DNA from: a virus
Taxonomy: Duplodnaviria > Heunggongvirae > Uroviricota > Caudoviricetes
Direction: 5' to 3' (one strand)
Virus record (IMG/VR): IMGVR_UViG_2563366990_000004
Length of the DNA: 46,456 bases
This document shows, one piece after another, positions 4,962-27,533 of the stretch. The notes under the pieces were generated by a model. It worked only from the letters and a program-made list of their open reading frames with translations, did not search any database and was not told where the DNA came from. A program made the position numbers and the translations under genes. Within the stretch, counting starts at the first letter, position 1; each line of letters starts with the position of its first letter.

Positions 4962-5446
4962 TATCGTGTCCTCAACAATGAATTTTGTGATGTGGTGCCT
5001 GGTGCCTCCAGGTGACGTTAACCAGTTAACAATTAACGCCGGAATACAGAAGGATGCCCGTTACGCCCCGTAAAAGACCACTTTACGGATTTAACTGTTC
5101 CGCGTGCGCATAGCCGCATTCACCGCATCACAAAATTCACTTTAAAAAGGATGGCAGAGCAGTCATGGAGTCGAACTGATGCCACCAAAGACTACACATG
5201 GATATTGTGGCGGGGCTGTCACTTAAGCGTATGGTCAGCCTGACAACCCGGTGTCCTCAAGGGGAAGGAATAACCCCGCCATACTTACCGCCGCGCCATT
5301 TCGCGGATTGCCACAACCGGAAGCGCACGGTCGAATTAAATTTAACGACAAAGTACAGAGAGACGAGCTTCTCCGTGCGCTTTCGTGTTATGCCCTGACT
5401 TTTCAGGGTAAATTAACCAGTGGCAACCTGTTTTTACTGGTGCTAA

Positions 5447-20556: not shown

Positions 20557-20795
20557 CTCACAATTCAGACGGTTGACAGTTGTCTGTTTTGCGGGGAGTT
20601 TGTTAAAAGAAACTGGCATGGTGAATCCCCCTGAGCGGAGGGGCGACTGGTGCATCAGGTGTTATCTTTGATACCCAGGAAAGTGAACGCGCGGGTTCGG
20701 TGGCACCGGGCTGAACTCACCGGGAGGCACCCGGCACTATGCGCATGATGTACAGATACGCGGCTTCAGCCCCTCTCCGGAGGGGCTTTTCTGTG
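20557..20795 (+). repeat. Repeat unit A (~240 bp) ending in an intrinsic terminator
   Basis: Starts CTCACAATTCAGACGGTTGACAGTTGTCTG; internal hairpin CCCCCTGAGCGGAGGGG; shared block GCGGGTTCGGTGGCACCGGGCTGAACTCACCGGGAGGCACCCGGCA; ends CAGCCCCTCTCCGGAGGGGCTTTTCT. Confidence 0.6.
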
Positions 20796-21042
20796 CCTTA
20801 TGCATCACAGTTTCTGGAACCCTGAGTACTACAGTATCAGTCAGGGTGCTATATTTGCAGATGTGATGAAAGCCTGCCGGCAGGCAGGGCGTATCGGAAA
20901 TGACCCAGTAAGAGAAAACGTTGACTCAGATACCGGTGCTGAGTTACCGGGAAACCGGCATCACATGACCGCTATCCTTCATGGCTCTCTCAGGAGAGCC
21001 TTTTTACTGGAGAAAACCGCTTCCCCGTAAAATGCCGTGTTG

Positions 21043-21282
21043 CTCACAATTCAGTCAGTTGAAGGTTGTCTGCCCGACTGAGAATTTGTTAAAAAATTTC
21101 TGCATGATGAATCCCCCTGTGCGGAGGGGCGGCTGGTGTACGGAATGGTCTCTGATGATCGTTAGCGAGAATGACGCGGGTTCGGTGGCACCGGGCTGAA
21201 CTCACCGGGAGGCACCCGGCATCATGTAATGAACGGTACATAGCGCTACTCTTCAGCCCCTCTCCGGAGGGGCTTTCTTATG
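21043..21282 (+). repeat. Repeat unit B (~240 bp), diverged copy of unit A, ending in an intrinsic terminator
   Basis: CTCACAATTCAGTCAGTTGAAGGTTGTCTG…CCCCCTGTGCGGAGGGG…GCGGGTTCGGTGGCACCGGGCTGAACTCACCGGGAGGCACCCGGCA…CAGCCCCTCTCCGGAGGGGCTTTCTT; a further hairpin with minus-strand terminator polarity at 21290-21315. Confidence 0.6.
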
Positions 21283-21511
21283 GATAAAAAAAGCCCGCAT
21301 GGTGAGATGCGGGCAGCAAGGAATAAACAACAAAACGTGAAGTAATCAATTTTTCAGCTGGCGAATAATACCCGACAGTAATCACTCTGCGCAACTGCGC
21401 GGCCTTTTTCGTATTGCGGGCTGTAGTCTTCCTCCTGCCATTGTCCTGTAACTTCCGGACTTCAGCCCGCCCCTCATCTGACTCACAACATTATCCCGAC
21501 CGGGAGGATTC

Positions 21512-24171: not shown

Positions 24172-24387
24172 ATGTACCAGATGGAAAAAATCACAACAGG
24201 TGTGTCATACACCACGTCAGCGGTGGGAACGGGCTACTGGTTCCTGCAGTTGCTGGACAGGGTTTCCCCGTCTCAGTGGGCGGCAATAGGCGTGCTGGGG
24301 AGTCTGCTGTTTGGGCTGCTGACATACCTGACTAACCTGTATTTCAAGATTAAAGAAGACCGTCGTAAGGCGGCGCGGGGAGAGTAG
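24172..24387 (+). CDS. S: Class II holin, phage-21 S-type pinholin with dual start (Met1/Met4)
   Basis: 71 aa; [71 protein letters not shown] is close to S21 (…[52 protein letters not shown]). Confidence 0.85.
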
Positions 24388-24390
24388 ACG

Positions 24391-25548
24391 ATGAATAAAC
24401 AATACGAACTGGTTGTTAAAGGGATAAATAATTACCCGGATAAGATTACTGTTACTGTGGCACTGGAAATTGCCGGGCAGCCGTCGTTGTTGTCGCCATA
24501 TGTGGCGATTAGTCTTGACCGTACTGAAGGTGCCAAGCTGGAATTTTACGAAGCTGAGGCGAAAAAGAAGGCGAAGCAGTTTTTCATGGATATTGCTGCC
24601 GCTTTATGTGAAGGGGATGAACAGTCACGGGAAAAGCGCCTCTGTTCAGAAGAGCGGTATACCATACAAATTAACAATGCATATAACACGATACAGTCAG
24701 AAAAAGATGATATCGAATCACGCATTGAAAAACTGGAGAACAGCGTCGTTGAACTGAATAAAAAACTGTCGGTGCAGATCCCTTCCGAAGGTGAAAAAAA
24801 ACGCCGTGATGAGCAGTTCGCGGCGTTTTACGATTATTGCCGGAAAGTGATGAGCAGAAATCTCGCAGAGTGTTTCCGTATTCAAAAAAACAGAGAGCGC
24901 TCTGCAAATAGTGAGATTCTGGATAATTTTTTAAAGGGGACGCATCTCGCCAGTGATTGTTTCATTGCTCATTCTTTTGGTGGCTTTCATGAGGCCATCA
25001 AACATGATGTTGAGAGAAGTCCAGGTATCCTCTGTTCCATTCCCGTAAGCATCGAAATAGACACAAATACGATAACCGGTGAACTCGTTACCGCCGGAGT
25101 CGGTATATTCCGTCATGAGGGGAACGATGCCAAAGGTTCCTTTACAAAAATCGGGCCGTTCTTTCTGAAGGTAGATTTCAGTGACCAGGAATGGGAGTGT
25201 AACCGGCCATCCTTTGTTGTATCCGGTGATGACGGGAAAATAACTATCTCAGAAAATGGAAAAGTAACACCGCCATCGCACCAGCACTGTGAGACGCTCA
25301 TTGAATTTGCCATTGATTACCTGAAGAACAATAAAAAGCAGGGACTAATGAAGCGCATTGGTCGTTGCATGGGGTATCTGCAGGTAGCCGCTGAGATTGA
25401 AGCGCTGGTCAGTGGTGCTGATAAGGATGCAGTTGTGCGGGAGACCGTTCTTCGTGATTTCAATACTCCACCCTTTAAGACTGAGCCAGATGATTGGATC
25501 CAGCCGGGGCTGACTTATCTGAAAGGGCGGTTTGGGGCGGTTATCTGA
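24391..25548 (+). CDS. Unknown 385-aa protein inserted between holin and endolysin (no recognisable family; central coiled-coil; possible AHSFGG elbow-like motif)
   Basis: Long uninterrupted ORF starting 4 nt after the holin stop; AT-rich; no signal peptide or TM segment evident. Confidence 0.6.
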   Translation: MNKQYELVVKGINNYPDKITVTVALEIAGQPSLLSPYVAISLDRTEGAKLEFYEAEAKKKAKQFFMDIAAALCEGDEQSREKRLCSEERYTIQINNAYNTIQSEKDDIESRIEKLENSVVELNKKLSVQIPSEGEKKRRDEQFAAFYDYCRKVMSRNLAECFRIQKNRERSANSEILDNFLKGTHLASDCFIAHSFGGFHEAIKHDVERSPGILCSIPVSIEIDTNTITGELVTAGVGIFRHEGNDAKGSFTKIGPFFLKVDFSDQEWECNRPSFVVSGDDGKITISENGKVTPPSHQHCETLIEFAIDYLKNNKKQGLMKRIGRCMGYLQVAAEIEALVSGADKDAVVRETVLRDFNTPPFKTEPDDWIQPGLTYLKGRFGAVI

Positions 25549-25861
25549 ACTTAAGCGATAGTTTATTGAAGAGCCGTTTTTTTTGCAGACAGGCAAAGTT
25601 TTTATCCCATGAACAACCCGGGTGACTGAGTTCGTCATTAAACCATTTGTTAATGTTGTGCTTCAGATGCTGAAGCATCAATGGTGTTAATGTGGTGATA
25701 ATGATATCCAGTGTTTCTGTTGAAAGCATGCCGTAAGGCTCTGAGAGAATGGCCTGAGTGGTTTCGCTATTATCCGGGATAAGCGCTTTTAATTCTGATT
25801 TAACATTTTCGTTCATTATCTGCAAAAACTCTTTGCGTAAATTGTTGTCATTATTATTCAT
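25541..25861 (-). CDS. Unknown 106-aa protein, convergent with and overlapping the 3' end of the 385-aa gene
   Basis: ORF on the opposite strand within the same AT-rich insertion; starts MNNNDNNLRKEF…; 8-nt overlap of the 3' ends. Confidence 0.45.
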   Translation of the reverse strand: MNNNDNNLRKEFLQIMNENVKSELKALIPDNSETTQAILSEPYGMLSTETLDIIITTLTPLMLQHLKHNINKWFNDELSHPGCSWDKNFACLQKKRLFNKLSLKFR

Positions 25862-25986
25862 TTATAAAATCTCATTTGTTGTTACCGGGTGTGTCCTGGT
25901 GCCTGTTGATTATATTCATCGTGAGTACCGGATTATATATCTGACATATCCAGGAATAAGAGAGCTATAAATCCTGATAAATATCC

Positions 25987-26520
25987 ATGAACACCAAAAT
26001 CAAATACGGCCTGTCGGCTGCCGTTCTGGCGCTGATTGCCGCAGGTGCGCCTGCGCCTGAAATCCTCGACCAGTTTCTGGATGAAAAAGAAGGCAACCAC
26101 ACCACGGCATACCGTGATGGCGCGGGTATCTGGACCATCTGCCGGGGTGCCATCATGGTGGATGGTAAGCCTGTGATTCCTGGCATGAAGCTGTCGAAGG
26201 GGAAATGCGACCGGGTTAACGCTATCGAACGGGATAAGGCGCTGGCATGGGTGGAGAAAAACATCAGAGTGCCACTGACCGAACCCCAGAAAGCGGGTAT
26301 TGCGTCATTCTGCCCGTATAACATTGGCCCCGGTAAGTGTTTCCCGTCGACGTTTTATAAACGAATTAATGCAGGCGATCGCAGGGGAGCGTGTGAAGCG
26401 ATTCGCTGGTGGATTAAGGACGGTGGCAGAGACTGCCGTATCCGCTCAAATAATTGCTACGGTCAGGTATCCCGTCGCGACCAGGAGAGTGCGCTGGCAT
26501 GCTGGGGTATCGACAGGTAG
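25987..26520 (+). CDS. R: SAR endolysin (T4-lysozyme family with N-terminal signal-anchor-release domain)
   Basis: 177 aa; N-terminal weakly hydrophobic Gly/Ala-rich stretch (LSAAVLALIAAGAPAP) then lysozyme core resembling R21 (…GIWTICRGAIMVDGKPV…); partners a pinholin. Confidence 0.85.
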   Translation: MNTKIKYGLSAAVLALIAAGAPAPEILDQFLDEKEGNHTTAYRDGAGIWTICRGAIMVDGKPVIPGMKLSKGKCDRVNAIERDKALAWVEKNIRVPLTEPQKAGIASFCPYNIGPGKCFPSTFYKRINAGDRRGACEAIRWWIKDGGRDCRIRSNNCYGQVSRRDQESALACWGIDR

Positions 26521-26611
26521 TAGAATATTTTGCTGAAAAATGACGTTGACCAACGCGGACGGATAACACGAAATCCTGCGAACTGGCAAAACCTAAGTGA
26601 ATAAAAGTAAA

Positions 26612-26647
26612 AACCCCGTTTGTTGGCAGCAAGCGGGGTTTTGTGTT
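26612..26647 (+). terminator. Intrinsic terminator-like hairpin downstream of the endolysin
   Basis: AACCCCG … CGGGGTT stem with ~15-nt loop followed by TTTTGTGTTT. Confidence 0.35.
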
Positions 26648-26678
26648 TCCTGACTCCGGAAAAGTCAAAGGAGAAAGT

Positions 26679-26816
26679 GTGTTTGATTTTAGCAAACTGA
26701 TTCGGGAGATTCGAGTGATGGCTGAAAAATTATCCACCTGGAAGTTCATCCTTATCTGGCTGGTGTTTGTGATTATGGCCTCCGGTTATTTCATCGGTCA
26801 GATACGCTGGTGGTGA
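26679..26816 (+). CDS. Possible small membrane protein (45 aa) between endolysin and Rz
   Basis: GTG 26679 preceded by AAGGAG at 5-nt spacing; C-terminal hydrophobic helix ([20 protein letters not shown]); stop 1 nt before the Rz start. Confidence 0.3.
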
Positions 26817-26817
26817 A

Positions 26818-27285
26818 ATGAACCGCGTTCTGTGTGTGGTCATCATTGCCCTGCTGGTGGCCTGTGGTGCGCTTAGTCTGGGGCTGAATCATTACCGCGA
26901 TAACGCCATCACCTACAAAGCGCAGCGCGATAAAAAAGCCAGAGAGCTGGAGCAGGCAAACGCAACCATTACTGATATGCAGGTGCGCCAGCGTGATGTT
27001 GCTGCGCTCGATGCAAAATACTCGAGGGAATTAGCCGATGCGAGAGCTGAAAATGAAACTCTGCGTGCTGATGTTGCCGCTGGTCGTAAGCGCCTGCGGA
27101 TCAACGCCACCTGCCACGGTACCGTGCGTGAAGCCACCAGCACCTCCGGCGTGGATAATGCAACCGGCCCCCGACTGGCAGACACCGCTGAACGGGATTA
27201 TTTCATCCTCAGAGAACGGTTGATGACAATGCAGAAGCAGCTGGAAGGGGCGAAGGAATATATCCGCACTCAGTGTATTAACTAG
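26818..27285 (+). CDS. Rz: Rz i-spanin
   Basis: 155 aa; N-terminal TM then coiled-coil; close to lambda Rz (…[45 protein letters not shown]…). Confidence 0.85.
27053..27223 (+). CDS. Rz1: Rz1 o-spanin lipoprotein embedded in the +1 frame of Rz
   Basis: [56 protein letters not shown]; lipobox VVSAC and proline-rich body as in lambda Rz1. Confidence 0.8.
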
Positions 27286-27308: not shown

Positions 27309-27533
27309 ATGAAGAAATTACTGGTAACCGTAGAACCTTTTCAGGGAACAATTCCGTTCCGTATTTTGCAGCGTGGTCGTGTTCTTGTTGAAGGTTCGTT
27401 CAGTGGTAAATGTACGCAATTACACTCCCGGACCTTTCAGGTGAATGCCACGAATGAAGAGCTAACCGTTGAGTGTACGATGAATGCCGCTAAATGCCGC
27501 ATGGTATCCGCTGCATTACAGCCAGTGTGTTGA
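27309..27533 (+). CDS. Hypothetical small Cys-containing protein (74 aa) between Rz and cos
   Basis: ORF from internal Met MKKLLVTVEPFQGT…; occupies the position where lambda carries bor on the other strand, but is not Bor-like. Confidence 0.35.
   Translation: MKKLLVTVEPFQGTIPFRILQRGRVLVEGSFSGKCTQLHSRTFQVNATNEELTVECTMNAAKCRMVSAALQPVC

Follow-up and report, generated by a model that had tools for sequence, protein, structure and literature searches.

The lysis region of a Caudoviricetes sequence of 46,456 nucleotides (nt) from IMG/VR (record IMGVR_UViG_2563366990_000004; "the window" below means this whole stretch) contains, between the endolysin gene R and the spanin gene Rz, a hydrophobic open reading frame (ORF) of 45 codons that we designate orf45. 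The locus raises the question of whether such a small frame is a gene at all and, if so, whether it belongs to the lysis machinery in which it is embedded. On comparative evidence, we conclude that orf45 is a real gene. It is a mobile accessory gene of late operons and does not belong specifically to the phage-21 lysis machinery, since the cassette that carries it was also found beside unrelated endolysins and in tail or baseplate operons.

The frame begins with GTG behind the Shine-Dalgarno (SD) sequence GGAG (26670-26673, 5-nt spacer) and ends with a TGA stop codon (26814-26816), one nucleotide before the start of Rz (TGGTGGTGAAATG); the junction between the two genes reads GGTGGTGA-ATG. The initial annotation had correctly described the GTG start, the ribosome-binding site, the extent (26679-26816) and the 1-nt distance to Rz. 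Its statement that the frame fills the gap between R and Rz did not hold: orf45 takes up 138 of the 297 nt, the remainder consisting of an R-distal stretch and a terminator-like hairpin. We recovered homologues from Salmonella phage SPN3UB and from Citrobacter, Edwardsiella, Yersinia, Izhakiella, Sodalis and Trabulsiella. All homologues in this eight-genus set, from E. coli to Sodalis, are exactly 45 codons long and start with GTG or TTG. Pairwise dN/dS values ranged from 0.03 to 0.23 with synonymous sites near saturation (pS 0.4-0.78), and the variable columns were distributed 25/6/31 over the three codon positions, only 6 of 44 second positions being variable. The five alternative frames across orf45 contained stops in most lineages. 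This strong purifying selection indicates that orf45 is protein-coding, so that its initial description as a possible hydrophobic ORF was borne out. The 80 IMG/VR loci, 78 of them with identical proteins, had been chosen for highest identity and are therefore uninformative on selection. We also noticed that the frame is left unannotated in the classical Shiga toxin 1 phage H-19B (AF034975, 17551-17685) and in SPN3UB (locus L004, 2659-2796).

A short ORF with a non-ATG start, unannotated by the PGAP pipeline in most genomes, could be a chance or decaying frame, or a spacer whose translation merely restores ribosome delivery to Rz, and the tight TGAAATG stop-start junction with Rz would fit such translational coupling. 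This explanation, in which the protein has no function, is already disfavoured and we regard it as very improbable: the low dN/dS was obtained at saturated synonymous change, the invariant residues of the C-terminal half use all their synonymous codons, the length of 45 codons is fixed from E. coli to Sodalis, and the protein is conserved also where Rz is absent downstream.

As an annotation, the small ORF is not new. RefSeq annotates the protein as WP_000459345.1, at the same position directly upstream of Rz, it was annotated in phage CP-1639 as CAH23245.1, and it matches PHROG 6632 (phrog_6632) over positions 1-45 of 45 (E 1.2e-29). These entries represent the orf45 family itself (full-length proteins of 45 amino acids, 96-100% identity) and describe a hypothetical protein, without function, leader structure or wider distribution. 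PHROG 6632 was the only match, as Pfam, NCBIfam and PADLOC gave none. In the literature, nothing relevant on orf45 was returned for its accession, its PHROG identifier or the phrase "between R and Rz". In the supplements of a ribosome profiling (RIBOseq) study of E. coli O157:H7 Sakai, orf45 was not found and a sibling ORF, XECs191, was present (PMC5597208); the Ribo-seq catalogues of E. coli K-12 are not applicable because the K-12 Qin prophage lacks orf45. So far as we searched the literature, five points are new: the evidence that the gene is under selection, the architecture of its leader, its occurrence in phages of Pasteurellales and Pseudomonas, the modularity of the superfamily and a candidate start within the gene. 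The gene itself is catalogued as a hypothetical protein and is of a familiar kind, namely an accessory gene for a small prophage membrane protein, and its existence will not surprise a specialist.

Hydropathy places a transmembrane domain (TMD) at about residues 23-40, in agreement with the hydrophobic character first noted, with a net charge of +2 on its N-terminal side. The AlphaFold2 model (pLDDT 86) comprises a short amphipathic helix (residues 4-17) and a transmembrane helix (residues 20-44). The product is thus predicted to be a bitopic inner-membrane protein with one membrane-spanning helix, and the positive-inside rule would orient it with its N-terminus in and its C-terminus out. The invariant residues are G36, Y37, Q41, I42, R43, W44 and W45. 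With a single charge, the C-terminus GQIRWW differs from the hydrophilic, highly charged C-terminal domain of holins.

With a coverage of at least 80%, the orf45 unit was present in 899 of 5426 complete E. coli genomes (about 17%), mostly unannotated by PGAP and nearly always between R and Rz, ending 1 nt before Rz. The unit of E. coli E2865 is 99.5% identical. The neighbours of orf45 vary between hosts. The flanking genes of E. coli and Salmonella SPN3UB encode a SAR (signal-anchor-release) lysozyme and Rz. Citrobacter braakii and Edwardsiella ictaluri also carry orf45 at an endolysin/spanin junction, with unrelated endolysins of the soluble type. The insertion point is between V-like and W-like baseplate genes in Yersinia similis, Salmonella SEN34 and Actinobacillus pPE4, and between the tail genes K and I/J in Pseudomonas R656 and in the enterobacterial loci L106-108. 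The phages carrying the family are all temperate and infect Enterobacterales, Pasteurellales and Pseudomonas; across this range the cassette has moved as a unit, leader included. In the K-12 Qin prophage, rrrQ and rzpQ overlap by 4 nt without insert. The initial view of orf45 as an additional gene stands insofar as it is absent where R and Rz abut, and is not supported insofar as it made orf45 an extra lysis gene tied to this particular system.

Several of these loci showed features of their own. Minus-strand Bro-N, a 168-amino-acid ORF and an RNase_T/BRCT gene lie between tail K and I/J in L106-L108 (4001-6800), and in L100-L102 (2900-5650) the orf45 homologue is found among ParE, RelB/YafQ, HicAB and BrnA modules ahead of the terminase. 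Such cargo islands edged by distant orf45 homologues may be defence or moron hot spots. In Edwardsiella ictaluri (L009, 4139-4601), the i-spanin past the orf45 homologue apparently lacks its N-terminal TMD (ORF start 4281), so that the lysis cassette of this prophage may be decaying while orf45 stays intact.

The slot between R and Rz also accommodates other small genes. In about 1100 further E. coli genomes, hairpin 1 of the leader (see below) was kept and was followed by other one-TMD ORFs, and altogether the slot is shared by four or more families of such ORFs. The 37/28-amino-acid type (...AFAIRIVAIAVLVWAIRWW; ending ...AIRWW) stops 1 nt before Rz and shares the IRWW-stop-N-ATG junction; the 60/51-amino-acid type (...LYGLAKLVIALKS; the 60-amino-acid ORF is in L096) lies behind the same leader as orf45 and belongs to a different family; the 43/48-amino-acid type, beginning with MSDKLITL, corresponds to XECs191 of Sakai, which immediately precedes Rz, its 48-amino-acid form being phrog_4906. 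The O103:H2 strain 12009 carries four small one-TMD ORFs in tandem (L095, 2077-2561), and alternative ORFs of 28-60 amino acids were also observed at L094 2142-2255 and L096 2077-2405. These ORFs have the slot, hairpin 1 and in part the leader in common with orf45, whereas their sequence families differ. XECs191 has RIBOseq-supported translation in Sakai (PMC5597208) while we found no such support for orf45 itself; it provides indirect support for translation of the R-Rz slot. A profile search of 1.84 billion representative proteins retrieved 40 relatives of orf45 (cluster representatives, E<=1e-3). In some distant relatives, the N-terminal half of orf45 was joined to C-terminal halves resembling the 60-amino-acid type, and the superfamily is modular on account of these combinations.

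The preference for the lysis region in E. coli might suggest a dedicated component of the pinholin/SAR system or of the spanin, be it an antiholin whose G36xxxG40 packs on TMD2 of the phage 21 holin S21, a "releasin" similar to Mu gp25, or an Rz cofactor. Besides the nearly constant position 1 nt before Rz and the four or more families sharing the slot, up to four in a row, such a partner would account for the invariance of the GxxxG-like motif and of the C-terminal GQIRWW, and for the fact that three unrelated lysis cassettes keep orf45 at the endolysin/spanin junction. However, the gene also accompanies soluble non-SAR endolysins and larger holins (Citrobacter, Edwardsiella), it is also present in baseplate and tail operons that are remote from all lysis genes, and the K-12 Qin cassette works without it. 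Lambda and cassettes of the DLP12 type also work without it. We consider a dedicated lysis partner unlikely.

The conserved unit extends beyond the coding sequence. Homology across the eight genera begins just left of a first hairpin and stops at the orf45 stop codon, defining a cassette of about 215 bp (26604-26816) made of hairpin 1, hairpin 2 at the SD, the non-ATG start and orf45. Hairpin 1 has a GC-rich stem and looks like a bidirectional terminator, because in every homologue it is preceded by an A-tract and followed by a T-tract. Its folding energy was -22 kcal/mol (z -3.1), compensatory changes affected three stem pairs among the eight genera, and it was present upstream of every homologue examined. 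Hairpin 2 ends 2 nt before the SD. In 12 homologues, it was recovered as a 5-bp stem with a 7-nt loop in at least 7 different stem sequences, with pairing in 58 of 60 cells against a shuffle mean of 38, a figure affected by selection bias as the stems were picked by eye; pairs were counted on hand-extracted 17-mers, the MAFFT register being unreliable. Both hairpins also precede the distant homologues from metagenomes, Salmonella SEN34, Actinobacillus pPE4 and Pseudomonas YMC11/02/R656. In the conserved unit, terminator and start codon are no more than about 35 nt apart, and a scan for consensus sites detected no sigma-70-like promoter on the plus strand upstream of orf45. A terminator in front, an SD that is partly occluded and a start codon other than ATG suggest, in combination, deliberately low, read-through-dependent expression. 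Two other candidate elements were discarded: Rfam scans with gathering and E-value thresholds for a small RNA (sRNA) or known RNA family were empty in the R-Rz gap, and a lone 9-of-12 match to an antisense promoter within orf45 (26801-26772) was at chance level and not conserved in SPN3UB-type sequences.

A second start may be nested in the gene at ATG codon 14. The motif GGGAG (26704-26708), formed by the codons of Arg9-Glu10, lies 9 nt upstream of this codon. Met14 is invariant in the eight-genus set and kept in nearly all distant homologues (one has Ile), most of which also retain an SD-like motif before it. Within codons 3-13, the invariant residues are each encoded by a single codon (D3 GAT, S5 AGC, K6 AAA, E10 GAG, R12 CGA), whereas at the invariant residues 36-43 every synonymous codon is in use; identity at third positions was 0.78 in the former and 0.50 in the latter (permutation p = 0.003). 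Every one of 16 homologues, ranging from E. coli to Pseudomonas, had AGC as its serine codon, and Arg12 was mostly CGA. The frozen synonymous sites cover 26685-26717 in the window and were also seen in the homologues L004-L112. In Serratia sp. Ag1 (L013, 4016-4114), only codons 14-45 are left, as an intact 32-amino-acid ORF without leader that is coupled to the stop codon of gpV by a TGATG overlap. Taken together, Met14, the GGGAG motif, the frozen synonymous sites and the Serratia short form make a nested 32-amino-acid product plausible. The invariance of AGC is not explained by such a product. We rejected an RNA structure as the source of the frozen codons 3-13: RNAalifold proposed a stem near GGGAG, without covariation and with broken pairs in two lineages.

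The same constraint on codons 3-13 would also fit a role of orf45 as the membrane toxin of a type I toxin-antitoxin (TA)-like pair, checked by a leftward antisense RNA running over the start region and ending at hairpin 1. The size and hydrophobicity of the protein resemble those of Hok-, TisB- and Ldr-type toxins, its expression signals are throttled, the minus-strand U-tract of hairpin 1 is good in all homologues, and at several loci minus-strand cargo genes point into the ORF. However, a promoter scan found no conserved minus-strand promoter, no Rfam family was detected at the locus, the toxin gene would lack a promoter of its own, and in the window it is Rz and not minus-strand cargo that lies next to orf45. 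A cognate antisense RNA or sRNA with its own promoter was thus not recovered, and we hold this pair to be quite improbable.

We propose instead that orf45 is transcribed only by read-through, which in the window would mean Q-antiterminated late transcription; this is probable in view of the negative promoter scan and of the terminator in front of the gene. Translation would be kept low by the occluded SD and the non-ATG start, translation of orf45 would hand ribosomes to Rz across the 1-nt gap of the window, and a second product of 32 amino acids may be initiated at ATG14. The protein itself would act as a dose-sensitive, membrane-active accessory of the late lytic programme at the inner membrane. 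We give an even chance to this overall explanation, a mobile cassette expressed late by read-through and encoding a membrane-active accessory. As to its specific role, the most likely candidate, put forward tentatively, is an adjustment of the moment at which the holin triggers or the envelope is disrupted.

A moron would be a different kind of accessory gene. Classical morons, as defined by Juhala and Hendrix, form transcription units of their own, bounded by an upstream promoter and a downstream terminator, and HK97 gp15 is an inner-membrane superinfection-exclusion protein encoded by such a gene in the tail operon. As a lysogenic-conversion moron, orf45 would be made in the lysogen, where it would block superinfecting phages by excluding DNA entry or act on another host membrane target. 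It does lie between genes that are adjacent in related phages (R/Rz in Qin; V/W as judged from Serratia Ag1, SEN34 and pPE4), it recurs at moron hot spots of tail operons and near Bro-N antirepressors, TA modules and an RNase_T gene, and all its carriers were temperate phages or prophages. Membrane proteins that are bitopic and of such small size are typical exclusion factors (PMC3594210), and the RIBOseq signal of the sibling XECs191 came from uninduced Sakai cultures (PMC5597208), although it may stem from spontaneously induced cells. On the other hand, the short distance between terminator and start leaves no room for a promoter, in accordance with the result of the sigma-70 scan, the terminator is 5' of the gene and not 3', Rz follows directly past the orf45 stop codon, and a PADLOC match is absent. 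The orf45 unit behaves as an atypical moron, with no promoter found and the terminator on its 5' side. We regard an exclusion or other host-membrane role as doubtful in itself, and as nearly as likely as our guess on lysis timing.

Several observations weigh against the late membrane-active accessory that we favour. The functional guess is drawn only from position, late co-transcription and the throttled design of expression. At the genus level, tail operons make up about half of the contexts, and any link to lysis is the weaker for it. The idea of a gate sits awkwardly with a terminator ahead of essential tail genes in phages that have no known antitermination. Hairpin 2 is thermodynamically weak (z ~0) with eye-chosen stems, the promoter scan was limited to sigma-70 consensus sites, and the frozen sites in codons 3-13 are only partly accounted for by an internal SD. 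A bolder version of the same explanation would see the leader and ORF as an undescribed class of mobile "gated" late-operon module, in which the terminator and the SD hairpin would restrict a dose-sensitive one-TMD protein to antiterminated or late transcripts, and the 45- and 32-amino-acid products would form an antagonist/effector pair acting on inner-membrane energisation. We consider this a long shot. If true, the module would provide unrelated phages with a portable modifier of the lysis clock, and its swappable halves would be specificity modules.

The lysis genes around orf45 (Table 1) form a standard cassette of the Shiga toxin (Stx)-phage, or phage-21, type with two accessory insertions. 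The pinholin S matches PF04971 (Bacteriophage P21 holin S; 7.2e-33), its residues 5-67 aligning with profile positions 1-63 of 64. It has a dual start, ATG TAC CAG ATG at 24172-24183, that can be read as M1 and M4 of MYQM and gives proteins of 71 or 68 amino acids; both versions (216 and 207 nt) are annotated by RefSeq in relatives. From this motif, M1 is predicted to initiate the longer antiholin and M4 the shorter holin. TMD2 of the translation carries GVLGSLLFG, an instance of the GxxxSxxxG motif; this pattern and its role are known from S21. The lysozyme R matches the solved structures of phage 21 lysozyme (PDB 3HDE, 5e-16) and of RrrD (4ZPU, 1e-15) and contains a catalytic triad E35-x8-D44-x5-T50, read from its sequence. 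Its N-terminal residues 8-25 (YGLSAAVLALIAAGAPAP) are weakly hydrophobic, Ala/Gly-rich and SAR-like, with a maximum Kyte-Doolittle value over 15 residues, KD(15), of 1.99 compared to 3.15 for the TMD of Rz. The spanin is of the two-component type, with an N-terminal TMD in Rz and an embedded Rz1 lipoprotein. The initial annotation, which had recognised a dual-start pinholin and a SAR endolysin in place of a lambda S/R pair, within an otherwise lambda-like late region, agrees with the PF04971, PF00959 and 3HDE matches, with the GH24 family, the triad and the SAR-like N-terminus of R, which make R a probable SAR endolysin, and with the lambda-type head genes downstream (Nu1, A, portal, C, E).

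Table 1. Coordinates of the features discussed, by position in the window (ORF, open reading frame; SD, Shine-Dalgarno; aa, amino acids)
Feature	Position	Strand	Evidence
S, phage-21-type pinholin (class II holin)	24172..24387	+	PF04971, translation
YdfR/DUF1327-family gene, 385 aa, mosaic variant	24391..25548	+	PF07041 residues 1-83; phrog_1085 full length
106-aa ORF, convergent with the YdfR-family gene	25541..25861	-	phrog_1853 positions 56-158/159, E 1e-43
R, SAR-type GH24 lysozyme, 177 aa	25987..26520	+	PF00959 3.9e-23
Conserved non-coding stretch directly 3' of R	26521..26609	+	nucleotide comparison
Hairpin 1, intrinsic-terminator-like, left end of cassette	26610..26642	.	terminator scan
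Hairpin 2, TGACT/AGTCA stem, 7-nt loop	26651..26667	+	stem comparison, 12 homologues
orf45, GTG start, 45 codons	26679..26816	+	phrog_6632, RefSeq, comparative analysis
Possible nested 32-aa product, ATG codon 14	26718..26816	+	conservation, SD-like motif
Rz i-spanin, 155 aa	26818..27285	+	PF03245 2.6e-49
Rz1 o-spanin, in +1 frame of Rz, lipobox LVVSAC	27038..27223	+	PF06085 6.4e-22
74-aa ORF downstream of Rz	27309..27533	+	partial phrog_2571 match

The mosaic build that had been seen in this combination is real but nothing special. The window represents a lambdoid prophage of the Stx-phage type, and its gene order S-(YdfR)-R-...-Rz is that of hundreds of Stx and lambdoid prophages. Partial matches to the 3.3-kb lysis region were obtained in 4999 of 5426 complete E. 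coli genomes and in 454 phage records, mostly of Stx-converting phages, and a survey of 279 Stx phages found the pin-holin/SAR-endolysin/Rz cassette to be the rule (PMC8136144). Phage-21-type lysis within a lambda-like late region is standard for Stx-type lambdoid prophages, and this textbook lysis system adds nothing new. Upstream of the lysis region are found the Q antiterminator, a DNA methylase, an AraC-type gene, two STnc100 RNAs, a NanS-p-like esterase and DUF826. The two STnc100-family sRNA copies are in tandem (20587-20796 and 21073-21285; 142 and 165 bits) and sit between the AraC-type and NanS-p-like esterase genes, at the position of stx in Stx phages. Elsewhere in the window, we observed a sok-family Rfam match (13916-14088, plus strand, 111 bits), a candidate only that possibly comes from a hok/sok-type module, and a match to the DicF sRNA (5149-5200, minus strand, 49 bits) barely above the gathering score. 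The ORF past Rz corresponds to a RefSeq hypothetical protein in a related prophage.

Between S and R lies an insert of 1.6 kb (24391-25986) with a YdfR/DUF1327 gene and a minus-strand ORF. The YdfR gene occupies the same position as in essQ-ydfR-rrrQ of K-12 Qin. Residues 1-262 of its product are 93% identical to a 263-amino-acid protein of a Stx1a phage, and the C-terminal third derives from other phages; the minus-strand ORF is truncated and corresponds to the C-terminal two thirds of phrog_1853. No complete E. coli genome or phage record covered at least 80% of this mosaic. On the other side of R, the first 85-94 nt past the gene are kept at 84-95% identity in more than 300 Stx and lambdoid phages, despite differing downstream cargo (ant, other small ORFs), and have no Rfam match. 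This stretch of about 90 nt could be an element of the 3' untranslated region of R or a recombination linker.

The modest interest of orf45 lies in its location within the lysis region that controls Shiga toxin release in many pathogenic E. coli, and in the family it represents, a widespread superfamily of very small prophage membrane proteins whose RNA leader is conserved. Should the gene shift lysis timing or membrane energisation, it would offer an inexpensive genetic handle on the timing of the burst and on the release of toxin, and a clear example of a small protein spreading between phages as promoter-less cassettes. Should it have no measurable effect, it would be one more conserved phage gene without assigned function.

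Compared to phage 21, the pinholin of the window shares the PF04971 family, the dual start and the GxxxSxxxG motif, and R likewise combines GH24 membership with a SAR-like N-terminus and the E-D-T triad, next to a Rz1 embedded in Rz. In contrast, R resembles the phage 21 lysozyme R21 only distantly (5e-16 to 3HDE), and the antiholin extension MYQ lacks the lysine present in the MKS of S21. The insert between S and R is a rare mosaic with respect to the phage 21/Stx lysis cassette. In common with morons, orf45 is small, extra and horizontally mobile, is found at late-operon junctions and would encode an inner-membrane protein (PMC3594210), but unlike classical morons it has no detected promoter and its terminator is upstream of the gene. 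Phage P2 LysA, Mu gp25 and antiholins are accessory regulators of lysis whose genes adjoin those of endolysins or spanins. Although orf45 has neither sequence similarity to them nor a charged C-terminal tail, and also occurs outside lysis cassettes, by analogy it would likewise be a small membrane protein encoded between endolysin and spanin and co-expressed late, and may share with such regulators the use of a dual start.

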